Shown: positions 2,450 through 37,631 of the stretch, piece by piece | How positions within the stretch are numbered: the first letter of the stretch is position 1 | How the letters are laid out: each line of letters starts with the position of its first letter | Sequence record: NZ_LC532224.1 | Direction: 5' to 3' (one strand) | Length of the DNA: 64,000 bases | Source: a plasmid | The notes under the pieces: generated by a model | Databases searched by the model: none | What the model saw: the letters and a program-made list of their open reading frames with translations, nothing else | What the model was told of the DNA's origin: nothing | Translations under genes and position numbers: made by a program

Positions 2450-3324
2450 TCCGGTTGTCTGGGCCAGTGATGAGAGAGTGGCAGGACAGGAATGGCTAAA
2501 CCGGTGCGGGTCTCTTGTAAGTCGCAGGGGATTGAGGAGATATAGAGGTAAACCGGTACGTTCAGTTTTTGGATTGAGCCGGGCTTTTGGCCCGGGCTTA
2601 AGGAAGCGGAAATTTGAACGAACTGGCAGGTAATGATTTATGCCGCCGACAGCTGGCCGTCAGTGCTTTGCTGTTCTGGTTTGACAGTTGGGGGATAACC
2701 GGCAGTTAGCCGCTGGCATTCCGCATCACAGAAAGCCCTGAGGTTGCTGAAGACGGACTCCATGAAATCAGCATGAGCATACGAGTCTACAGGACGTGTC
2801 TTGTTATCTTTCATCTTGTTCTCCTCAATCATTATTAAAACCAGCGGATTTAGTTCCTGGCGCTCCATCTGCTGACCGGCTTTCCCAGAGAGCAGCGATG
2901 TGTCGGGTTCTGTTTCTCATTTTATCGTTTTCATCGGGCCCATCCGGCCGTATAAGAGACCGATTTGGCATGTTTAAGAAACGTACTGGCGACATTAAAA
3001 GCTGAGGTTGGCTTTGGAATAAAAGGATACTTTTCCCGTTTGTCAGGTCTTTCGCTACCGCTGCACGATGATTCTGTCAGGCATTCTGCGCCCTCCTTGG
3101 CTGTACATCTTGAAACAAGCGGTGGGATGTTCCCTTCCCCCTGCTCACCGCAGAATAATTGGCAAGTCCCGACGGTCGTTCCGTACGAGCCGGGTCCAAA
3201 TAATGAATAAATACAACGCCACTTCAATTGTATTGACAATAGAAGTTAGGAGGATCATAGTGTCATTCATGGTGCGGCTTTCGCACCACCGCCCCGGCGG
3301 TACCGGGCAGAACTGGAGTACCTC

Positions 3325-4269
3325 ATGAAACTTTCCCGTCAGACGACTTCTGATACTTCTGTTGATGGCCGTTCACGCGCATATGCCTGGGGCCGTGTCC
3401 ATTATTTCATTATCGAACATGCACCAATGGCTGAGCTGGTCGCTATTGACGAGCTGCTGGAAAAAGCTGGCTGGAGCAATGACGGCTGTCCGAACTATGA
3501 GAAAGATGACGAGTTTGGTAATGCTGGTTACAGCTGTGGTTACTGGATCGATATTGACAGCGTGGGAAGCTTCAAGGCTGACTACAAACGTCTTAAGGGT
3601 GAGATTAGTGCGCATATCGCCTCAAAGGCGGCAGAGGTGGAGATCCGCGTACTGGACTCGATGTCCGACAAAGAATGTAAAGATGTTGCCTCGGTGGCAT
3701 GTACTGTTCGCCGTGACTTACGTACGCAGTCCGAATCGCTTCATTCACTGCGTACTATCGTAACGGTTGATCATTACAATCCCTATGTGATCACCAGCCG
3801 CCCGCTGAGCATTTCCGCCTGGACACTTATCCACGACTGTCTGAAAACCGGCACCATCAATGACGTCTGTTCACGGTTGAGTTCATTAATCCTGCACTCT
3901 GAAGCCGCGATTGCCCGTTGTAAGGGAAGCTCCGACTACTCTTCGGAACACGCTCAGCTATCGTTTTTTGCTGGTAACGACTATGTCACCAGACGCACCC
4001 TTGTTGATGCAGCTCACGAAGAGGCTCTGCGAATGAACCGCCGCTTTGATGAACGTATTGCAATGAACGCGGATTCTGATGCCAGAAGGCTCCAGTGCGA
4101 ATTCAACCTGAGCAACCATGTCGTACAGCGTCGGACCGTTGAATCTGCTCATATCCAGGCAATCAACGAAGACGTCACCCGTTCACAGGCGGAACCACGC
4201 TGCCCTGGAAAGCTTCTTCTGAAAATGACCAGTCATGAGGAAGTGCGGGACTCACTGAGCACCTGTTAG
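3325..4269 (+). CDS. Hypothetical protein (314 aa).
   Basis: Long ORF with a GGAG RBS 8 nt upstream. No recognisable domain. Confidence 0.55.
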   Translation: MKLSRQTTSDTSVDGRSRAYAWGRVHYFIIEHAPMAELVAIDELLEKAGWSNDGCPNYEKDDEFGNAGYSCGYWIDIDSVGSFKADYKRLKGEISAHIASKAAEVEIRVLDSMSDKECKDVASVACTVRRDLRTQSESLHSLRTIVTVDHYNPYVITSRPLSISAWTLIHDCLKTGTINDVCSRLSSLILHSEAAIARCKGSSDYSSEHAQLSFFAGNDYVTRRTLVDAAHEEALRMNRRFDERIAMNADSDARRLQCEFNLSNHVVQRRTVESAHIQAINEDVTRSQAEPRCPGKLLLKMTSHEEVRDSLSTC

Positions 4270-4364
4270 TCCAGCGACACCCCCTGCGGCTCTACTACCG
4301 GGCCGCAGTCTGCTCCGGCCAGATGGTGCCAGTGGCGTAATGAATTTGTTTAATAAGGCTGAGT

Positions 4365-4967
4365 ATGATGAATAAAGAACAACTAATCGACAAACTGGAA
4401 CGCGTGGTATGTGGTCAGTACTCCTACGAAATGCAGGAGCTTGCGTATTCGGCCCTCTGCTGCATTAAAGGCACCCCGGACGACTGCGCTAAGTTCCCTG
4501 TTACGCGTCCGCTGCCTGACACCTTAGTGGACGTATGGGACGAGATCGGGCAATACCTTGGCACAGGCAAAGCCATTGAAACTCGCAGTTGCGGCGTTTC
4601 GCTTCTGCTTCATGGACACTGCTACGATTCAAATCATGTGCTGTACTGGCGCAATGCTGGCGCACTTCCAGCAGCTTGCGATACGCCACTGGCTGGTGGG
4701 TCTCGCAAACTGTTCACCTGCTCAGCCTGTGGAGTGGACGGTCTGGATGAACCACCTGAAACCAGTTGCCACTGCTGCACAGAGGGGGCCCACTGGATTG
4801 AGAGCAGGCTCTTCACCTCCGGGCAGGCAGACCCTGAAGAATTTAGACCCGTGGCGGTCGTGAAAGAGTGTGCAGGCTCAACGCCGGATGATCGGCTCAT
4901 CTGGAGCGTGATTGAACAGCTCAACGGCGAACTGGCGGAAGGCGATAAACTATTTAAGCGACGCTGA
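4365..4967 (+). CDS. Hypothetical Cys-rich protein (200 aa).
   Basis: ORF with multiple CxxC/CxC pairs (CGVSLLLHGHC, CSACGVDG, CHCC). Possible metal-binding protein. Confidence 0.5.
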   Translation: MMNKEQLIDKLERVVCGQYSYEMQELAYSALCCIKGTPDDCAKFPVTRPLPDTLVDVWDEIGQYLGTGKAIETRSCGVSLLLHGHCYDSNHVLYWRNAGALPAACDTPLAGGSRKLFTCSACGVDGLDEPPETSCHCCTEGAHWIESRLFTSGQADPEEFRPVAVVKECAGSTPDDRLIWSVIEQLNGELAEGDKLFKRR

Positions 4968-5020
4968 CAGATCACGTCAGCATTTATATCAGACGAACTC
5001 CAGAATAATTTAAAGCAACC

Positions 5021-5377
5021 ATGAACATGAAAAAGCCCAAAGCTGCATTACAGAATGCCATGAAAGAAGATGTGCCAGCTGTGACACAGATTCAGATGCG
5101 ATCTACGGTTTCCAGAAAGGTTCGCTATGTAAAACAGGCAAATCGAGAGGGTCTGAAATTATCTGAGTGGATGTCGCGGCATCTCGACGCTGTCTGTGAT
5201 ACCGCAGATGAGATTCATAAAGGCAAACGCTCAACTCCGGTTGCGCCTGGGAAGATTCCCCCTGAGGTATACCAGGTGATATACGATCAGTGCGGCGGGT
5301 TCGTGGAGTGTGATGCTAATGCCCAGGTAATCTGGGAAGCCTGCCGTGATGCCATTCTTAACGGAGACAAAGGGTAA
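5021..5377 (+). CDS. Hypothetical protein (118 aa).
   Basis: ORF in a co-oriented cluster. Confidence 0.45.
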   Translation: MNMKKPKAALQNAMKEDVPAVTQIQMRSTVSRKVRYVKQANREGLKLSEWMSRHLDAVCDTADEIHKGKRSTPVAPGKIPPEVYQVIYDQCGGFVECDANAQVIWEACRDAILNGDKG

Positions 5378-5423
5378 ACGGCAGGTATCGCCTGTCATTT
5401 TTACCCTTGTGAGGAAAATCCTG

Positions 5424-5627
5424 ATGAACCATGAGAGCCGAACTGTATACCTGAACACGGCCATTGAGGCCCTGTTGAAAGCTGAGGCGGCTCTGAACGA
5501 GCTGGCATTAGCCTATGTACTCAAACCAGGTGAAAAGGCAAGCGCATGCCATCCCCGAACCGGTACGCTTTCCACAGCTTCCCAGGTAAGAAAACTTCGC
5601 CGTGTTCTAGAAAAAAACAAGTTATGA
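5424..5627 (+). CDS. Hypothetical small protein (67 aa). Internal start preferred over the 5346 start.
   Basis: Strong GAGGA RBS before the ATG at 5424. The longer ORF would overlap the preceding gene by 32 nt. Confidence 0.4.
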   Translation: MNHESRTVYLNTAIEALLKAEAALNELALAYVLKPGEKASACHPRTGTLSTASQVRKLRRVLEKNKL

Positions 5628-5908
5628 CGGCCCTTATACGCTGGCATAATGTACCGTGCTTCGCTCATCCCAGCAGTATGGGTTTTAAACTCTTCCATTT
5701 TTAAGAGTACGGGAAGAGCCTTATTATTGTCGCATACCCTACGGATGCATTGCAGTTCAAACCGCTGTTCGGTGCAATTATTGCTGTATCCGGCGGATTT
5801 GAAAATGACAGAAATAGTGATGTAAAGCTCCGCCATTAAAGAAATGCCCCGTAGTTTGGCGAATCAACTTTCTGAATTATCTCGATGAACACCATTTAAG
5901 GAAATCGA

Positions 5909-6229
5909 ATGTGTGATTTTTGCAGGGCTGACGAAAATTACTTTCATATGGCAGAATGCGTGTATGACCAACTGGTTAAAGAGTATCCCGTAATGTGGCT
6001 GCGGGATTCAACCCGGATCGGGGCCTGCTACCTCTGTCGAGAACTGCTGTCGCCGGAGGGGATGGTCCTGGCGATGCAGAGCGCTTTCCCTGCGAAGGGA
6101 TGGCGGCTGCGTATTTGGTACAATGAAACCATTGACGAAGAGATAGAACCGCAGCGTGGAGACTGTATTGAGCTGTCCTCCAGGGCGGACGCTCTGCTGT
6201 CCTTCATGTCGTTCCAGGAAAAGGTTTAG
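5909..6229 (+). CDS. Hypothetical protein (106 aa).
   Basis: ORF with an AAGGAAA RBS. Confidence 0.45.
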   Translation: MCDFCRADENYFHMAECVYDQLVKEYPVMWLRDSTRIGACYLCRELLSPEGMVLAMQSAFPAKGWRLRIWYNETIDEEIEPQRGDCIELSSRADALLSFMSFQEKV

Positions 6230-6825
6230 CGCTGCGGCCCCCCTCACAAAAAGGCGCTTTCCGCGACAAATCTGGTACGACCGGACAACGTTGAGTCAAT
6301 TCTTGCTTCCCCGCAGAAGAATCCCTATGAAGTAAAGTAGAGGTAGGCATTACGCCCACCAGCAAACCTGATAACTGTTCTTTGCGTAACATCCTCAAAC
6401 TTCTGGTGCCTTCGTAGACTGCGATGCGAATGCCCATGAGCTGAATTCACCGTATCATTTGACCGGATGCAGCGAGAACAGAAATGACAATGTTTGAACG
6501 ATTTGCCAGACGGCCATAAAACTCTACTGGGTACAGAATAAGGACTGACCGCAATGGCTACGTTCTATGAGCTACCGACCAGTGAGAAGTCCATTGTTTC
6601 CGGTACGTGCCCGGACGAGCACCGGTGAAATTTTTCCCGACTGGATTACGCTAAGGCTTTTGAACGGTTTGCGTGAAGTGGGACTCTTTGGGTCTGGTTC
6701 TTGATTTATACAAAAGGCTATATGCCACAAGACGGGAGGAAAAAAGGGTTTCCCCGACTGGAGAAACCCTTTCAAAAGGTGCCGATGGCATACTAATCCA
6801 CACCCCGAAAAGAGGGGGTTGCCCC

Positions 6826-8186: not shown

Positions 8187-8345
8187 CTACTTACCGGATT
8201 CGTAGGCCAGGATAGCAGATACCTCCCTTGTTCCGTCTTTCATCCGCAACTCGCAAAGCGAGTTTCGTGTGAGCCAGGTGAATATCAACAGCGTTAAACA
8301 AACTATTAATATGCACAAAACAATGGGTTGGTTCGGCATTTTCAT
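8187..8345 (-). CDS. hok: Hok/Gef-family type I toxin (52 aa).
   Basis: [52 protein letters not shown] is near-identical in pattern to Hok ([52 protein letters not shown]). AAGGAG RBS present. The listed 99-aa ORF is an in-frame upstream extension. Confidence 0.85.
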
Positions 8346-8560
8346 GGCCTTCTTCTCCTTGCATTTAAGCAGGCAAGAGGCTACTCTGAATGTGACTAGC
8401 ATACAGGGGCCTCGGGTTAATTGAAAAATTACTCGGGGCTTTCTGCTTTTACCACAGTCAAACAGTGTTACCGCTGGCTGGGGCAAAAGCCTCCAGCACC
8501 AGCGTTATTATACCACCCTGCCCTGATCAGCCAAACACCCCGCCTACATAAATTACTGAT
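8346..8560 (-). promoter_or_regulatory. sok: hok mRNA leader region. By analogy with R1 hok/sok, it should hold the mok overlap, tac/ucb elements and the antisense Sok RNA on the opposite strand.
   Basis: Inferred from the architecture of hok/sok loci. No sok promoter or terminator was verified in the sequence. Confidence 0.3.
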
Positions 8561-22052: not shown

Positions 22053-24861
22053 TCAGTCCGGAAACGTATCACTATCTTCTGTAACGTCCGCTTTCTCTGG
22101 TAACATTCTGTTTTTAATATACTGTGAATTCCTGCAGATGAGAGGAAAAATCTCCGAGTTATTCATTATACAACTCGTTGCCGTACGGGCGTCCTCCGGA
22201 GACCATGATGAAAATGAAAACGTCTGACGGTCAAGCCATTGAGACAATAATACATTATCAACAGAAGCGCTAAACAGCGCCGCAATAGCCCTGCGTTCAA
22301 CGGCCTTCTCAGGTTCAATAAACGACAACTCATTATGAAAACGGGTAATAATCGCAATACGGCTGTCAATACGAATATGTCTTTCAAGTAAGACATCGTG
22401 CAACTCATCAAGTACAGTCTCTCTCTGGGTATCGTCGAGGCAAGACCACAGGAAATGAATGTTCTCGGCATTTGTGACAACGTCTGGCTCTGCATCACGG
22501 AACCATGATGCAAAGATACCCACACTACCTTCCATCCGGATATGCTGCCCCTGAAGTTGCATTTGTTCAAGGATAAAGCGCATGTTCACAGGAAGAACCG
22601 TAAAACACTCAATAAGCCTTTCAGAAGAACTAAATACTCCACATGCCAGGGCGTTCAGCTTTTTCTTCAAAATATCAAACTGCTCACCTGACTGATATAC
22701 GTCATGGAGAAATACTGGACCCATAGCATTCACATCAGACTCAATTATTTTCTCTGACAGTGCTTTTTGACGCTCTCGCACAAATATTAAAAGAGAGGTT
22801 GCATTTGTAGCTTCTTTGATGACGTCATACTGACCTTTAACAAAGCTCAGGACAGGTATATTCACCAGAAGACCTAAATCAACAATCCTGCCAACAGCAT
22901 TTTTGATGTACGGCAGAACATTTTTATCCTTAAGTGCTATAAAGATACTCTCGGCAGTACGTAGATAACGAAGATATGCAGCCAAAGCCAGGTCAAACCG
23001 TTCCTCACCAATATGTTCACTGTACGACTCGATACCGGCATAGTTACCATGGAGCACCATGTGAGCAACAGCCTGTGCAGCAAATTCCGCAGGGAAGAGA
23101 TTCCTCGTCGCCGTATTATTAAGATAATATTGATTTAAAACATTATTATTCCAGTCCGGGCTCAGAACAATTTTTCTGAAATGGATAACGTCCTCAACAA
23201 CCTGACGATTTTTAAGCGTCATTATTGCAGAGCTAACCTGAGCCCCACCTGTACCATCATTCTTTCCAATTACGTTCTGTACCGCCTTCGATGCAATATT
23301 GATATGCCGGATAATTCCCGGATTAAAAAGGTCTATCTGAGGTTGCTCAGCTCCATAGCGTAACATCTCCTCCCGACCGTGATTTCCGATATCTAGTGTG
23401 CCAATTTTCAGGTTTGACAAGGTCTCTTCATTATTGACAAGGTATTCCACATAAAATACGCCATCTACAAAATTCTCCATTTTATTCAGTAGTGATTCAC
23501 CGGCCAGAACAGAGTATGAATCAGCTTCCTGCAGCAACGTCTGCGTGGATTCAGCCTCCAATTTTTCTGAATCCTGAATTTCATCAAGTTTACTCACAAT
23601 AAACGATATTTGCCTTTCGACGAAAGGCTCTAGGCTTATCCGCCCGTCAGCCATCAGTTTCTGCAGACTCAATACGAAACCTTCATCATTCTTTTCTCTG
23701 AGTGAAACAGCATAACTCTGATTCAGCATTTGCACTGCGACTTTGAGTTGCGGTTCGGCGAGAGCCTGACACTTCTCATCCATCCGGCTATAAGAAACCA
23801 GCCAGTCTCGCATCTGAATATGTGGTGCCACTCGCTGCCATGCTTCAGCGAAACCCCACAAGGCCGTCAGTTCTTCAAGCCGTGGGATATTTATAGCACC
23901 AATCGCGTCTTTAAGAGGCGTATCAAGCAACTCGCTCCTGGCAAGCTCCACCGTGGACTGATAGTGGATGCTCATCAGAAATTCGCTCCATCTTTCTGTA
24001 TCGTTATTAAAAATTCGGGATATTTGTTGATAAGTTAGCGAGAGCATCTCGTCAAAATCATCCGGAGCAATACCGGGTTCGGTCTGACTAGCTTTGGGAT
24101 CGCGAAGTAATACTTTAATATCTCGCTCCCCGTATCTGACCACCAGTAAGTAGAGAGCAATAAGAATATGGCGATGATCTTCTGTTGCAGGAACGGTAAG
24201 GTTCAGAATATGAATATCATTAACAAACTTCTTCATTAATCGCGGTGTGATACGAGGATACTCAGAGGGTTTCCAGCGCTCAAGCAACACCGTTGCTTCC
24301 CGGCACGCTATCCCTGCATCCTCATTTACTGTTTCTTTCCAGTACTGCCTTAACGCTTCCTGCCATCCTGCCGAAATAAGAGGAGGAACCTGAAAACTTA
24401 CAGGAATCCGCTTTGCAATAAACTCACGCCCGCTGAAACCCGCCACAGAAAGTGAGGCTGAAACCTGTCTTGCCGAATAGGGCACCACTATCCTGAAGTG
24501 TTCATGAGTGGCTCCGGCAATAAGCTCCATATCACTCCAGAGCTCTTTCACTTTGTCTGCACTGATTCGGTCCAGATTATCAATGATAAGGATGAAGCGA
24601 TCTCCATGGGAAATGACCTCTTTGGAGGTAAATCCCTGCAGAGCTTCAGCCAGCTCAATAGCTCCGACCTCCTTATTAACTAGCCAAGTCTCTTCAATCC
24701 TGTCAGTACTGTTGCGTTTGAACAAATCACCAATACTCGAATACCCTTTCTTTCTGTACCATTCCATGTTCTGCAGGCATGCCAGTCCTGCGACCATAAT
24801 GGCAGGAGAAAGAAACGCGGCCACCTCAACATAAAAAAGCCACCCTAATAATGACTCCTTG
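22053..24861 (-). pseudogene. KAP-family P-loop NTPase, C-terminal part (about 935 codons). Its reading frame is interrupted by IS3.
   Basis: The FILIIDNLDRISADKVKELW (DxxDR) box and the intra-NTPase TM insertion are KAP hallmarks. The frame continues in-frame across the IS into 26106..26575. Confidence 0.7.
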
Positions 24862-24891: not shown

Positions 24892-25746
24892 CTAAGCGAG
24901 GTTCTGGTTTTCAAATTGTTCGGGACTGAGTCCGCCACAGGCACTGTGTCGGCGCCACCGATTGTAATCACACTCGATATAATTAAACACCGTCATCCGC
25001 ATGATTTCCCGGCTGATAAGGCGTTCCCCGTGGATACATTCCACCTTCAGCGAGTGGAAGAAGCTTTCCGCGCAGGCATTGTCGTAACAACATCCTTTGG
25101 CACTCATGCTACCGTGCAGATTATGCCGCTTCAGTAACGCCAGATAGTCTGCCGAACAGTACTGCCCGCCTCTGTCCGTATGCACGATGACATTTTCCGG
25201 GCGCTTACGTCGCCAGAGTGCCATCTGTAGCGCATCGCAGGCCAGCTGCGCTGTCATCCGCGACGACATCGACCAGCCGATGACAGCACGGGACCACAGG
25301 TCAATGACCACCGCCAGGTACAACCAGCCTTCGTCCGTGCGCAAGTACGTGATGTCACCCGCCCACTTCTGATTCGGGCCACTCGCGTAAAAATCCTGTT
25401 TCAGCAGATTTTCAGACACCGGCAGGCCATGTTCGCGGTATCGGACCGGGCTGAACTTCCGGGCCGCTTTTGCGCGAAGCCCCTGACGCCGCAGGCTGGC
25501 GGCAATGGTTTTGACGTTGTACTCAGGCAGTTCGTCAGCGAGACGAGGCGCACCATAACGCTGTTTTGCCTCAGTGAATGCCTGACGGACAGCAGTATCA
25601 CAGACGAGCCGGAACTGCTGACGTGGTGTTATCTGCTGACGACGCAGACGCCACGCATACCAGCCGCTACGGGCGACCCGCAGTACCCGGCATATGGCTT
25701 TGACGCTGAACTCAGCCCGATGTTTTTCAATAAAGACATACTTCAT
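24892..25746 (-). CDS. insF: IS3 OrfB (DDE integrase domain), expressed by a -1 frameshift with OrfA.
   Basis: [33 protein letters not shown]… is the IS3-family catalytic core. Confidence 0.9.
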
Positions 25747-26042
25747 TTCAGGCGCTTCGCGAAGTATGTCGCGGCCTTTTGGAGAATGGCCAGCTCCTCT
25801 GCCTGTTCCGCCAGTTGGCGCTTAAGACGGGCAATTTCAACGGACATTTCCTGCTCACGTTCGGAAGAGCTGCGGGCATTGTTAATCTTACTGCGCCATG
25901 CGTAGAGCTGGGATTCGTACAGGCTGAGTTCCCGGGCAGCGGCAGCAACACCGATACGTTCCGCAAGCTTCAGGGCTTCGTTGCGGAATTCAGGCGTGTA
26001 CTGTTTGCGGGGCTTCTTACTGGTTGATGCTGGTTTTGTCAT
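25743..26042 (-). CDS. insE: IS3 OrfA (HTH).
   Basis: [52 protein letters not shown]… is near-identical to IS3 OrfA. Confidence 0.9.
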
Positions 26043-26105
26043 GAGTCACCTCTGGTTAAGAGTTTACTCACTTAGTCGTGTGTCCACTATTCGTGGGTAA
26101 GATCA

Positions 26106-26575
26106 TTGTTAGTAAAATATTGATTAAGGTCTGTTAGCACATAACGAAGCATCTGCACGGAAAGCAATGACAGTAAAATAAAAACGACGGTCAACCAGCT
26201 TAGCCTGCTGCTGACCCTCTTGTCGTATTCAACGATGTTACCCAGAGCCAGATTTTTATACTTATCCAACACATCCCGGGAGCCCGGACATTGTAGGCTG
26301 ACCCCGTGGTGGATGACATCGATAAGCGCTTTTTTAGTTGAGCCATGATGGTAACGTTCTGCATCAAAGTTAATGAACGTAAAATCATCTTTAAGCTTTT
26401 TCTGCAGGAACTTCAATATTGTTGACTTACCTGAACCCAGCTCACCTTCCAGACCAATAATATTGACATCAGGTGTCCTGATGATCTGAGCCACATTCTC
26501 TGCAACTTTTTCATGACTGCTGCCTCTAAACATATCCTGGTCAGCGGGTGATTCCGTCTGCAATCGTAGAGTCAT
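26106..26575 (-). pseudogene. KAP-family NTPase, N-terminal part with the Walker A motif.
   Basis: IGLEGELGSGKST matches the KAP P-loop consensus GxEGxWGxGKS. The codon phase matches the downstream part once IS3 and one TTG copy are removed. Confidence 0.7.
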
Positions 26576-33830: not shown

Positions 33831-33953
33831 GTTGATTTCCAGCCTCAGAAAATGTGCTTAATTTTCAGGCCTGAACAGGGCCTGAACCCTGCAGACCTGA
33901 GATGTACTGTAACTGAATCGCCACGGATAATCTAGACACTTCCGAGCCGTTGA

Positions 33954-33995
33954 TGGACTGACCCCGCCCCGGTAGACGATCCTGCCCTATAGTTT
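33954..33995. repeat. Solo 43-bp copy of the IRR terminus of the adjacent IS3-family element. It lies in direct orientation immediately before the element's IRL.
   Basis: 33954-33996 is identical to the reverse complement of 37449-37491 (tggactgaccccgccccggtagacgatcctgccctatagtttg). Confidence 0.7.
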
Positions 33996-34108
33996 GGACT
34001 GACCCCACGCCTGTAGACAAATCCTGTCCTCACGACGAGGCCTGTTCGAAGGCCTCCGGACTGACGTCGCCGAGGTGGCTGTGGCGCCGGGACCGGTTAT
34101 AGAAGACT

Positions 34109-34476
34109 TCAATGTAATCGAAGATCCGCCCGGGCCAGATCCCTGGTTTTATATATGCGTTTTCTGATCCGTTCTTTTTTCAGCGAACTGAAGAACGATT
34201 CGGCCACCGCATTATCCCAGCAGTTGCCACGCCGGCTCATGCTCGGCGCCAGGTTATTGGCCCGGTAGAAGCGCTGCCAGTCGTCACTGCCGTACTGGCT
34301 GCCCTGATCGCTATGTACGATAACCTCGCTGTCTGGTTTTCGGCGCCAGACCGCCATCATCAGCGCGTCGAGCGCCAGTTCGCGTGAGAGAGTGGGTTTC
34401 ATCGACCAGCCGACCACATTACGGGCGAAGAGATCGATAACCACCGCCAGATACAGCCAGCCCTGCCAGGTGCGGA
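34109..34476 (-). pseudogene. IS3-family orfB 3' exon (…[25 protein letters not shown]…).
   Basis: Joining at the predicted exon junction gives …[22 protein letters not shown]…, matching the conserved orfB core. Confidence 0.75.
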
Positions 34477-36736
34477 GTAGAGTAAGAGGCAGGGCGTAGT
34501 CGGACTATTTCCCTGCCTCTCCTCCCCGAACCGGACGTGCACCTTTCAGCGCATCCGGCTCTCCATTTAAATGCTGGCGAACGCCATTGCCACTTCTGTA
34601 AAGCGCGATGTATACGTGTTTCTGGTCTCCGTCCTCAGATAGGGATTACCTTCGGGTAGCCGCCAGCGGAACAGCTTCTTGCCTTGCCCCACCAACCGGT
34701 ACAGTATTTCGCCGCTGAGCTTGCCGTGATTGGTTTTACCAAATAAAACCCACGTTTTGCTCTGACCCGGTTTCGGTGATTTACACCACCACCTCATCAG
34801 GGAAGCGATACCTGTACGGTATTTGCGGGCCAGCCAGTGAGCCAGCTTCCAGAACACGACACGGTCGATATAACTGAAGACTTTGGCCTTAAAATCAACG
34901 AACTGATAGAACATGGCCCAGCCTTTCAGTTTTCGGTTGAGTTGTTCAGCCATATCGACTTTGCTTTCACTGTAGTTGCCTGATAACAGTGCTGTCAGCG
35001 ATGCGGCGAAGTTTCTGGCTTTCTCCTGCGGGATCGTTGAGACCACTCGCATCTCGCCATAACGACTGCGTTTGCGAATGATCCTGTGCCCCAGAAAGAT
35101 AAAGCCGTCATTAACATGGGTGATTTTAGTCTTATCCATGTTCAGCCTGAGTTTCAGACTGCCTTCGAGCACACCCCGACACTCCTCCCTGATGGCTTCC
35201 GCCTGTGCTTTGGTGCCTTTGACGATGAGGACAAAATCATCGGCATAGCGGCAGTACGCCACCGCGGGTTTCCACTGCCAGTTTTCTCTGACCGCCGTAC
35301 TTCGGCCCCGTTGGATACTGTTATTCCAGTACCACCGATCTTTTCTGGCTTTCCCGCTCAGGTAGCGCTCATGCAGGTATTGATCGAACTCATTCAGCAT
35401 GATGTTCGATAATAGCGGCGATATAACACCGCCCTGTGGTACACCTTCACTGGCCGCCCGAAAGAGACCGACATCGATATGTCCCGCCTTGATGGTTTTC
35501 CACAGCAGAGTCATGAAACGTGCGTCACTGATCCTGCGGCGTACAGCCTTCATCAGCAGTCGATGATGTACGGTGTCGAAGTAACTGGACAGGTCGCCTT
35601 CAATCACCCAGCGTCCCCGGGTTTCACCACAGTCTGTGAGCTGTAATTTCACCGTGCGGATCGCGTGGTGGACACTGCGCTCAGGCCGGAAGCCATATGA
35701 GAGCGTATGAAAATCACTCTCCCATATCGGCTCCATCGCCATCAGCATGGCCCGCTGAACAATACGATCCCGCAACGCGGGGATACCCAGTGGTCGCAGT
35801 TTGCCGTTGCTTTTAGGGATGTAAACCCGTCTGGCGGGCAAGGGCTGGTAGTGGCCTGAGAGTAATTCATCCCTGAGGATTTGCAGCTCAACAGCCAGTC
35901 TGGCCTGTAGCATTGTTTTGTTCACGCCATCAACGCCGGGGGTATGGGCCCCCTTTGATGAAAGCGTGATCCGCGCCGCTTCAGCCAGCCATTCTGGTTG
36001 TGTTATCAGACGCAGCAGCCGTTGAATCCGTAGGGACGGATCGGTGGCTGCCCATGTGGCAAGCTTGCGTTGCATTTCGCTGATTATCAAAGGTCTTCAC
36101 CTCGTTAGGTCAGTTAATTCACGTCGCAAACACATTCAAACTGCTTCCCTTCGCCATGTAATGGGCTTTCCCCATCGCGGACTACTACGGAAGCTCCGCC
36201 AGCCAGCGCGTCATCGGAGCCATGCCCCCTTAACATCCGTCGCTGACCTTCCCCGGTTTACCTGCCTGGACTCAGGCATACTGAGGAGGCTGCCCGTCGC
36301 ACTCTTTATCCTTGCTTGCCGCAAGTTGGCAGAAGTCAGCATCGCAAGCGTGATAGACGCTGCTGCCCCGGTGTTTCGCATACATGTCAAAACACCTTCG
36401 ACCGGCAGTGCTTACGTATCACTGCCAGTTCCTCCTGCACGGCCTGTCAGATCACGTAGGCCGTGGTGACGTTTTCAACCCACAGAGGCGGATTAACGGG
36501 TTCATGTTCTTCAGCCTTTCAGTACTTAACCTTGAGGATCATCTCGGCTTAGTGATCTCGCCTCAATCCCCGTTGTCAGCGGGTTACATCACCCTGCGGG
36601 CATGCCGCAGGTCACTGCCGCTCAGGTTCTCCACCGTCACACCCGGTGGGATTGTTGGGTTTCTCATCGTGAGTTACCGGTTCAATATTCCAGACAGACT
36701 CGCGGTTCATTTAAGCATCCATGCCCGCCCTGAACT
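34477..36736 (-). mobile_element. Group II intron (2260 nt) with an intron-encoded reverse transcriptase/maturase.
   Basis: The 5' end GUGUGC… (GUGYG) lies directly after orfB codon ITY. Domain V GAGCCGGATGCGCTGAAAGGTGCACGTCCGGTTC sits at 34528-34561. The domain VI / 3' end is …CTCTTACTCTAC. The IEP ORF is in the domain IV position. Confidence 0.85.
34567..36090 (-). CDS. Group II intron reverse transcriptase/maturase (IEP).
   Basis: 507 aa with the RT motifs (…LGIPALRDRIVQRAM…, FYADDFVLIVKG) and the maturase X domain. Confidence 0.9.
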   Translation of the reverse strand: MIISEMQRKLATWAATDPSLRIQRLLRLITQPEWLAEAARITLSSKGAHTPGVDGVNKTMLQARLAVELQILRDELLSGHYQPLPARRVYIPKSNGKLRPLGIPALRDRIVQRAMLMAMEPIWESDFHTLSYGFRPERSVHHAIRTVKLQLTDCGETRGRWVIEGDLSSYFDTVHHRLLMKAVRRRISDARFMTLLWKTIKAGHIDVGLFRAASEGVPQGGVISPLLSNIMLNEFDQYLHERYLSGKARKDRWYWNNSIQRGRSTAVRENWQWKPAVAYCRYADDFVLIVKGTKAQAEAIREECRGVLEGSLKLRLNMDKTKITHVNDGFIFLGHRIIRKRSRYGEMRVVSTIPQEKARNFAASLTALLSGNYSESKVDMAEQLNRKLKGWAMFYQFVDFKAKVFSYIDRVVFWKLAHWLARKYRTGIASLMRWWCKSPKPGQSKTWVLFGKTNHGKLSGEILYRLVGQGKKLFRWRLPEGNPYLRTETRNTYTSRFTEVAMAFASI

Positions 36737-37110
36737 CCGGGCACACTATAAGTAATATCGGTGACCCAGACCTGGGTGGCCCGGACAACGGTGAACTGCC
36801 GCTGCACGAGATTAGGAGCAACGACTGAAGGCCTGCCAGCGATACGACGTGGCGCTTTATAGCCGCGCACAGCTTTAATCCGGTCCAGTTGCATGATCCG
36901 ACCCACCCGGTTTCTACCACAGGTTTCCCCGATTTCGTTCAGATCGCCATGAACCCGCCGGTAACCGTATACGCCTCCGCTCAGGGAATATGAGTCGCGG
37001 ATAAGCATCAGCAGGCGCTGGTTATCTTTATCACGCGCCGAGACAGGGTTATGCAGCCACGCATAGAACCCGGCCCGGGCGACATTCAGTACCCGACACA
37101 TCGTCATCAC
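36737..37110 (-). pseudogene. IS3-family orfB 5' exon (…QVWVTDITY).
   Basis: An N-terminal orfB segment that reads into intron sequence in the genomic DNA. Confidence 0.75.
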
Positions 37111-37148
37111 ACCCCATACAGTTCGGTGCTCATTGATAAAGCGGTACT

Positions 37149-37433
37149 TCAGTCGGGCTCCTTTGCAAAGTACCGCGCGGCCTTTTTCAGGATATCCCGT
37201 TCTTCTTCGGTGCGTTTTAGCTGCGCCCGGAGTTTCAGGATCTCGCTTTTAGCTTCCAGTAAATCCCGGGCATGCTGCTCGCTGTTATCAGGTTTGATAG
37301 CCCGTAGCCACTTGTAGAGGCGGTGTGCAGAGACGCCCAGACGCTCAGATACTTAGGCGACGGAATAACCGCGTTCCGTTATCTGACGGACGGCTTCTTC
37401 CTTAAATTCAGGTGTAAATCGTGGTGTGCCCAT
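37149..37433 (-). pseudogene. IS3-family orfA (HTH) with a premature TAA at codon 27.
   Basis: MGTPRFTPEFKEEAVRQITERGYSVA*VSERLGVSAHRLYKWLRAIKPDNSEQHARDLLEAKSEILKLRAQLKRTEEERDILKKAARYFAKEPD. Confidence 0.7.
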
Positions 37434-37491
37434 ACGCTCCTCCTATACTCAAACTATAGGGCAGGATCGTCTACCGGGGCGGGGTCAGTCC

Positions 37492-37631
37492 AGGGAGCCG
37501 TTAACGACCTGATGGCGGTTGTTCTGGAAAGCTATCTTCGGGAGGAATTCCCCGATACGGGCAAACGAAATGAGTCGCAGAAGAGGTCAATCGACGACAC
37601 CATTTCGATAGTCCGCTCCTATCTCCGTTAA
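37492..37631 (+). pseudogene. 3' fragment of a second FrmR/RcnR-family regulator gene, truncated by the IS.
   Basis: It encodes …GAVNDLMAVVLESYLREEFPDTGKRNESQKRSIDDTISIVRSYLR, homologous to the FrmR C-terminus [19 protein letters not shown]…[13 protein letters not shown]. Confidence 0.65.

Follow-up and report, generated by a model that had tools for sequence, protein, structure and literature searches.

We examined a 64,000-nt stretch (the window) of sequence record NZ_LC532224.1, a large IncHI-type plasmid of a kind found in Enterobacter, Leclercia, Citrobacter and Klebsiella. At the locus described here an insertion sequence (IS) of the IS3 family is split by a group II intron that encodes a reverse transcriptase (RT)/maturase, and two IS-end fragments lie beside it. 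The features, with coordinates in the window, are:

36747..37492, minus strand: 5′ part of the IS, comprising the left inverted repeat (IRL), orfA, the frameshift window and the orfB N-terminal portion as far as ...VWVTDITY plus one A (Pfam HTH_21; alignment)
37433..37149, minus strand: orfA, with TAA at codon 27 (37353..37355)
about 37181..37190, minus strand: AAAAAG frameshift window
34477..36746, minus strand: group II intron E.c.I4 (bacterial class A), 2270 nt, from 5′ GUGUG to 3′ ...CUCUAC
36401..36429, minus strand: domain I hairpin with the proposed EBS1 (compensatory changes at two stem pairs among intron variants)
34567..36075, minus strand: RT/maturase in domain IV, with a YADD motif and no endonuclease domain (Pfam; TIGR04416)
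34528..34561, minus strand: domain V, the catalytic hairpin (RF00029 alignment; folds in the minimum-free-energy structure)
34479..34525, minus strand: domain VI, with a single bulged branch-point A at 34483 (RF00029 alignment and fold)
33995..34476, minus strand: 3′ part of the IS, comprising the orfB catalytic core, a 2-bp deletion and the right inverted repeat (IRR) (Pfam rve; alignment to an intact copy)
33954..33994, plus strand: solo, exact 41-nt copy of IRL, inverted and abutting IRR (pattern search)
33911..33953, minus strand: right-end remnant, about 40 nt, of a different IS3-family IS, ending ...GGCGATTCA (sequence identity)

The intron starts GUGUGCCC and ends CUCUUACUCUAC, and its GUGUG...AC ends satisfy the group II boundary consensus (5′ GUGYG...AY 3′). 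A naturally occurring empty allele proves where it begins and ends: when 34477..36746 was deleted in silico, the joined sequence matched the intron-free allele of the sister plasmid pEh25_1 (NZ_CP126747.1) with 0 mismatches over 7228 nt. The insertion is exact, without target duplication, and in sense orientation relative to orfB; it lies after the first base of an Ile codon (A/TC, the slash here and below marking the insertion point) within ...DITY/IRT.... A preliminary description had placed the intron at 34477..36736 (2260 nt), directly after the codon for the Y of ...DITY. Its 34477 end and GUGUG start stand, but the 5′ splice site had slipped by 10 nt and belongs at 36746, and the intron begins one base past the TAT codon, splitting the codon that follows. 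The broader identification, a group II intron with RT/maturase homed into an IS3-family orfB, agrees with Rfam, NCBIfam and the empty allele.

By nucleotide identity, the intron is already known: it is the mobile enterobacterial group II intron E.c.I4. Between the copy here and NC_011750 489783-492052 of E. coli IAI39, the interval that Table S3 of PMC3522654 gives as E.c.I4-10, 4 of the 2270 nt differ. The nesting had been called uncommon, yet it involves a known intron in its usual target: of 5426 complete E. coli genomes, 1874 contain copies of E.c.I4 with 80% or more of the intron covered. Among the 3208 E. coli records with a match, 2722 have a best match of 99% identity or higher, and 1671 plasmids cover at least 80% of the first 660 nt of the intron. 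The nested unit is real, and is an ordinary feature, not a new one.

Domains V and VI gave an Rfam RF00029 match at 34477..34563 on the minus strand (score 64.9 bits, gathering threshold 40, E-value 1.7e-10; full model, 1-77). This alignment confirms the domain V that had been reported as a textbook hairpin at the same coordinates, and in the predicted fold the bulged A of domain VI is the seventh nucleotide from the 3′ splice site. A permissive Rfam scan of 34400..36800 returned domain V/VI models only, with no domain I-IV family match, and the fold of domains I-III is for that reason without support from a curated model. The check by folding and EBS/IBS pairing that had been suggested thus came out positive for domains V/VI and for EBS1 pairing (below), but not for a domain I-IV Rfam match.

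The RT/maturase ORF ends 5 nt before domain V. Its product counts 502 aa from the ATG at 36075, as in RefSeq, or 507 aa from a TTG at 36090; the latter (ORF 34567..36090) is the 507-aa protein recognized earlier in the domain IV position. Pfam assigns RVT_1 to residues 91-337 and GIIM to 361-426; neither an HNH nor an endonuclease domain turned up in the same scan, and the protein continues for only about 76 aa beyond GIIM. Class A proteins are without the D/En region (PMC3552965), and E.c.I4 has been placed among the classes lacking En (PMC3552965, PMC4244168). The accession WP_001189111.1 is annotated both at the locus of an identical plasmid and at the E.c.I4-10 locus in IAI39.

An RT from a retron or DGR had been named beforehand as the outcome that would speak against a group II intron. 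That the RT comes from a retron, a DGR or a defence system, its intron-like RNA elements being coincidental, has in our estimate next to no chance of being right. Weak partial matches to retron and Drt RT models do occur, as expected of any RT domain, but these models fall below their cut-offs, at 18-54 bits against 200-600 (best retron model, 54 against 235; Drt models, 48-52 against 200-390), whereas the group II RT/maturase model TIGR04416 scores 341 against 300. Among the matches that the NCBIfam scan returned, none was to a DGR family. The GIIM maturase domain in the RT protein, the placement of domains V and VI directly downstream of its ORF, and the exact GUGUG...AC boundaries of the 2270-nt insertion also count against such an origin; with sub-cut-off scores and group II features together, a retron or DGR identity was rejected.

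The host IS spans 33995..37492 and measures 1228 bp without the intron; its left end, TGGACTG..., is at 37492, one position beyond the 37491 first given. IS3-family traits are present: orfA and orfB in frames 0 and -1, HTH_21 and rve domains, and terminal inverted repeats that start TGGACTGACCCC. An intact 1230-bp IS that bears the annotation "IS3 family transposase, programmed frameshift" shares 96.3% identity with this element, and a copy with a transposase fragment labelled "ISEc14 family" shares about 93%. Codon 27 of orfA is TAA here and GAA in the intact relative, confirming the in-frame stop that had been taken as a sign of decay. That decay is further borne out by a lesion missed at the time, a 2-bp (AT) deletion in orfB relative to the intact copy (within 34114..34129, at about 34125; IS position about 1097). 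The deletion shifts the reading frame, so that orfB terminates early at a TGA (34109..34111) ahead of its natural stop (34030..34032), and a conserved stretch of the orfB C-terminus, which in the intact copy reads ...ADIFDYIEVFYNRARRHSHLGGVSPEAFEQASS, is lost. Both lesions are already found in the intron-free allele. Judged by them, this IS copy is non-functional and was so before the intron inserted.

The preliminary description had further proposed a working IS whose transposase expression is gated by intron splicing. The intron is indeed in sense orientation, and splicing in silico joins the orfB exons as ...ACTTATA/TCCGCACC..., restoring, as had been stated, DITY-IRT of the catalytic core and with it the frame through the first catalytic Asp motif; such gating is plausible for intact IS copies elsewhere. 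For this copy we hold it to be very improbable, and rejected it on its lesions: orfA is stopped at codon 27, the 2-bp deletion strips the conserved orfB C-terminus, and splicing would yield no transposase here because both defects are already present in the empty allele. In the E. coli chromosomal copy examined, orfB is likewise broken by an internal stop.

We also examined the flanks of the IS. No 3-5 bp target-site duplication was found there (...CCC on the left, AAC... on the right); since the right flank is an IS-end remnant, the original duplication was probably lost through rearrangement. A search with the IRL pattern hit exactly (0 mismatches) at 2 sites, against 0 expected by chance. 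The neighboring right-end remnant matches, at 100% identity, the terminus of an IS3-family element annotated in NZ_AP022127.1, and a 40-mer from it recurs in many plasmids. A joined-flank query for an uninterrupted junction empty of the IS found no plasmid, and thus gave no basis for reconstructing where the IS first inserted or which bases were duplicated there.

The intron target was compared among IS copies, a search that had been suggested from the outset. The intron, or a close variant of it, occupies one and the same codon position in about 12 different IS3-family elements, and in every copy examined the insertion follows the first base of the codon 3′ of D-x-T-Y. The target is ...GATATTACTTATA/TCCGC... 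in the host IS here and GATTTTACTTACG/TCAGC in IS3, while the site in an intron-free IS at about 25 kb of the window reads ACGTACT/TG; the consensus across the elements examined is GAYNTNACNTAY R/TC. A fixed position in IS3-family transposase genes (those of IS629, IS911, ISEc16 and ISEc31) has been described as the E.c.I4 target (PMC3522654, citing Han 2004).

The loop of the domain I hairpin, AUACGUAAG, occupies intron positions 328-336, and our proposed EBS1 within it is CGUAAG (intron 331-336; window 36411..36416). This hexamer pairs at all six positions with the IS3 target CUUACG; with CUUAUA, the target in the host IS here, five of six pair, with G.U at -2 and a C-A mismatch at -1. Exon position -1 covaries with EBS1 position 331, being G-C in IS3 and C-G in the Y. 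pestis variant. Two EBS2 candidates were rejected for inconsistent support across targets and variants: intron 58-64 (AAUAUUG), pairing with -14 to -8, and intron 219-224 (UAAGUA), pairing with -8 to -3 or with -10 to -7.

We are confident, short of certainty, that E.c.I4, a class A intron with an endonuclease-less RT/maturase, retrohomed into its usual D-x-T-Y/(I or V) target in an IS3-family orfB. By what is established of group II introns, the intron RNA and its bound protein would recognize the target mainly by EBS1 pairing with exon positions -6 to -1, and the RNA would then reverse-splice into the DNA. Because the E.c.I4 protein is without an endonuclease, we propose that cDNA copying is probably primed by the nascent strand at a replication fork, as in RmInt1. 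The IS would serve merely as a harmless, horizontally spreading landing pad for the intron. The intron-free allele could in principle reflect precise intron loss and not the ancestral state.

The imperfect 5′ exon pairing at -1, together with the report that some E.c.I4 copies on mobile elements are inactivated (PMC3522654), could instead point to an immobile fossil, a passive plasmid passenger that has lost splicing and homing. We think this unlikely. The intron here keeps an intact ORF, whose protein accession recurs at the E.c.I4-10 locus, and its domains V and VI are intact, the latter with the bulged A. The flanks of the filled and empty alleles are 100% identical, which points to very recent insertion, and the near-identity among E. 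coli matches given above (2722 of 3208 records) likewise speaks against a fossil. Recent retrohoming into the IS remains our preferred reading.

The same dead IS occurs in public plasmids in at least four states at this locus: empty, with E.c.I4, with E.c.I4 plus an IS110-family element, and with a sister intron. The sister, a class A intron that is 91% identical, is at the same nucleotide in related plasmids and has a different EBS1 loop. It was found in about 31 plasmids at 99% identity or more with its ORF intact, on which grounds sequencing error was rejected as the origin of the 91% variant. For the neighborhood we used the annotation of pLEC-1cb1, and for that only; collinearity of the window with pLEC-1cb1 over 50 kb was rejected, there being 8747 mismatches.

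We lean, by a little, toward independent arrivals of the two introns, which would make the locus a natural series in which the motif suffices, the IS shuttles and class A is diverse. If this is true, a DNA motif of about 15 nt is all that class A introns need, with no requirement for a live IS; plasmid-borne IS copies that are defunct shuttle introns between enterobacterial genera; and the diversity of class A goes beyond the "three nearly identical members" recorded in 2013-2014. The allele series (empty, E.c.I4, sister intron, with or without IS110) could mark IncHI and IncN plasmid lineages, and could supply material on class A target recognition, which is poorly characterized.

Beyond correct annotation the importance of the locus is low, although it makes a clean textbook example of an intron hidden in another mobile element, and one in which homing works without a functional IS. 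Annotators should treat ltrA together with the two "IS3 family transposase" fragments as a single nested unit.

Among known systems the closest is E.c.I4 itself (also S.f.I1; Escherichia, Shigella), with the same 2270 nt, the same accession for the intron-encoded protein and the same type of target; it is known from Escherichia and Shigella, whereas the copy here is on an IncHI-type plasmid. In two further E. coli chromosomes the intron 5′ end lies downstream of GTGTGGTGCGGTGATGTGACCTAYA, which we take to be IS911 orfB. The host IS here is none of the four hosts named for E.c.I4 in PMC3522654 (IS629, IS911, ISEc16, ISEc31); it shares 96% identity with an IS3-family IS of E. coli ATCC 8739 that has no name. 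The ykfC fragment of K-12-type laboratory strains is 99.7% identical to intron nt 1-1764, but that copy is truncated and dead, whereas the one here has its full length and an intact ORF; for MG1655, a fragment of E.c.I4 is listed in PMC3522654. RmInt1 of Sinorhizobium meliloti, in ISRm2011-2, is likewise endonuclease-less and homes specifically into an IS transposase gene, and it is thought to prime from replication-fork DNA (PMC8914252, PMC1802570). It differs as a class D intron with another RNA structure, IS family and host, and the mechanism that we propose for E.c.I4 by analogy has been demonstrated in RmInt1.

The intron is a precise insertion of 2270 nt that left no target duplication; an empty allele exists for the same plasmid locus, which has a uvrA paralogue on one side and the frmRA-fghA formaldehyde operon on the other. 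This follows from comparison with pEh25_1 of Enterobacter hormaechei (NZ_CP126747.1) over the IS and 3 kb of flank per side: with 34477..36746 deleted from the window, all 7228 positions are identical. The sequence places the 5′ splice site at 36746, hence the length of 2270 nt, and not at 36736 as in the preliminary description, which had also put the left end of the IS one base away from its position at 37492. The intron begins GUGUGCCC, one base past a TAT codon, and splits an Ile codon (A|TC). With the exons joined in silico the IS measures 1228 bp, and in this form it occurs uninterrupted at 100% identity in at least 18 plasmids. The features are:

33995..37492, host IS3-family element, terminal inverted repeats beginning TGGACTGACCCC
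37433..37149, orfA of the host element, in which an AAAAAG frameshift window is present
orfB of the host element, with HTH_21 and rve (DDE) domains, interrupted by the intron
34477..36746, minus strand, group II intron
36401..36429 (intron 318-346), hairpin bearing the candidate EBS1, loop AUACGUAAG
34567..36090, minus strand, intron ORF upstream of domain V, 507 aa from TTG

All the features that define a mobile group II intron and can be tested in sequence are present. Rfam RF00029 (group II, domains V and VI) has a minus-strand match of 64.9 bits (gathering score 40) at 34477..34563, with domain V at 34528..34561, exactly as first described, and domain VI folds with one bulged A (34483), 7 nt from the intron 3′ end. 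The RefSeq start of the ORF is an ATG, giving a protein of 502 aa; a Pfam scan finds RVT_1 and GIIM (maturase) and no endonuclease domain. The original group II call is thereby borne out, and assignment of the RT to a retron or DGR is not: the protein passes the NCBIfam equivalog for group II RT/maturase (341 bits, cut-off 300), scores of 18-54 bits leave it below the cut-offs (200-600) of the retron and defence-RT (Drt) models, and the NCBIfam scan returned no DGR family.

An intact relative of the host IS is a 1230-bp element of E. coli ATCC 8739 (96.3% identity), annotated "IS3 family transposase, programmed frameshift"; another copy, with a transposase fragment that annotation assigns to the ISEc14 family, is about 93% identical. 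Against the intact copy, orfA codon 27 has changed from GAA to TAA, the nonsense codon already noticed, and orfB has a previously missed 2-bp deletion at IS position ~1097, near window 34125, that shifts the frame and loses the conserved C-terminal ...IFDYIEVFYNRxRRHSHLG.... Both lesions are also in the intron-free allele, so the host IS was dead before the intron inserted, unless precise intron loss produced the empty allele. Transposase from the window copy is impossible with or without splicing, and the splicing-conditional transposase once proposed finds no support.

In species-representative genomes and fetched records, the intron or its close variants occupy one fixed position in about a dozen IS3-family elements, always one base into the codon that follows D-[I/V/F]-T-Y, with target DNA consensus GAYNTNACNTAY R|TC. 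We propose that the hairpin loop at intron 318-346 is EBS1. Across four intron variants, two pairs of the hairpin stem have compensatory changes, and the loop segment CGUAAG makes 6/6 pairs with the IS3-type target CUUACG, versus 5/6 with the window IS target CUUAUA (G.U at -2, C/A mismatch at -1). A Yersinia pestis pMT variant has the loop GAUAUG and a target ending ...CCUAUC, in which loop position 331 (G) again pairs with -1 (C), an intron-target covariation. No loop could be assigned as EBS2, and among the Rfam models none for domains I-IV matches the intron. By analogy with what is described for endonuclease-less introns such as RmInt1, the intron RNA would reverse-splice into the DNA target, and cDNA may be primed by the nascent strand at the replication fork.

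The window holds a second, apparently intact and intron-free IS3-family element (~24892..26042, minus strand), splitting a KAP-type P-loop NTPase gene (22053..24824 and 26087..26575). Its equivalent site, ACGTACT|TG (GACATCACGTACT|TG), makes just 4/6 pairs with the proposed EBS1. Elsewhere, 8343..8501 (minus strand) matches sok antisense RNA of the hok/sok type I toxin-antitoxin locus (RF01794, 84.4 bits), consistent with a large conjugative plasmid.

The surroundings of the host IS are themselves composite. At 33954..33994 (plus strand) an exact 41-nt inverted copy of its own left inverted repeat directly abuts the right inverted repeat, so that perfect inverted repeats of 41 bp enclose the composite; the IS has no flanking target-site duplication. 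Next to this, 33911..33953 holds the terminal ~40 nt (...TCTAGATTATCCGTGGCGATTCA) of another IS3-family IS; the stretch matches the right end of an IS annotated in NZ_AP022127.1 at 100% identity. A joined-flank query matched 1684 plasmid records, with the remnant 40-mer behind many of them. IS ends have piled up at this locus, probably because IS3-family elements inserted into IS termini and deletions followed. Both sides carry the 8-mer AACGGCTC (37495..37502 and 33944..33951), in each case 2 nt beyond the outer IRL end; the pair is too long and symmetric for an obvious chance match and does not amount to a canonical IS3 target duplication.

In IncN plasmids of K. pneumoniae, the same dead IS copy is interrupted at the identical nucleotide by a different class A intron, also of 2270 nt (2501..4770 of the fetched NZ_CP150001.1 record, equivalent to window 34477..36746) and present in ~31 plasmids at ≥99% identity. 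This sister intron is 90.7% identical to the window intron along its whole length, encodes an intact protein (92.8% aa identity), and has the EBS1 loop GAUAUG instead of CGUAAG. The 2500 nt upstream of it have a single mismatch to the window locus; this difference agrees with the ancestral base, which suggests that homing took place independently in a separate lineage. Some sister plasmids (NZ_CP026242.1) have a 1374-bp IS110-family element, absent from the window, in the orfB 3′ exon between 34307 and 34306 (codons HSD|QGSQY).

On the E. coli AR_0137 chromosome (3001..6505 of the fetched record) the same IS type also contains the intron, 1 nt different. This IS lies between yecA and an hhe defence gene, beside a TGACCTGCCCCC-type IS end. 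Its lesions differ from those of the window copy (orfB has a TAG, orfA is intact), which shows that the two ISs were invaded independently. The IS-plus-intron composite is found at ~97% identity in ~105 E. coli records, counted irrespective of locus.

The nested arrangement was thought uncommon, which the genomes do not support: copies of the intron of ≥80% length are in 1874 of the 5426 complete E. coli genomes, the best match being ≥99% identical in 2722 of 3208 matching records, and by annotation the copies almost always fall within "IS3 family transposase" fragments; ykfC of K-12-type laboratory strains is a truncated copy (nt 1-1764, 99.7% identity). E.c.I4-10 of E. coli IAI39, with coordinates in Table S3 of PMC3522654, is likewise 2270 nt and differs from the window intron at 4 positions; its protein has the accession WP_001189111.1, as does the one annotated at the identical plasmid locus. 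The same paper gives IS3-like transposases as the target of E.c.I4. This near-identity identifies the window intron as the published E.c.I4, of bacterial class A, among the classes with proteins lacking the D/En region (PMC3552965, PMC4244168). Transposase genes are a recognised general residence of group II introns (PMC7306698; PMC3522654). The nested intron is thus correctly described and already known, to which this copy adds only a host IS outside the four named in 2012 (IS629, IS911, ISEc16 and ISEc31) and a setting on plasmids of Enterobacterales other than E. coli.
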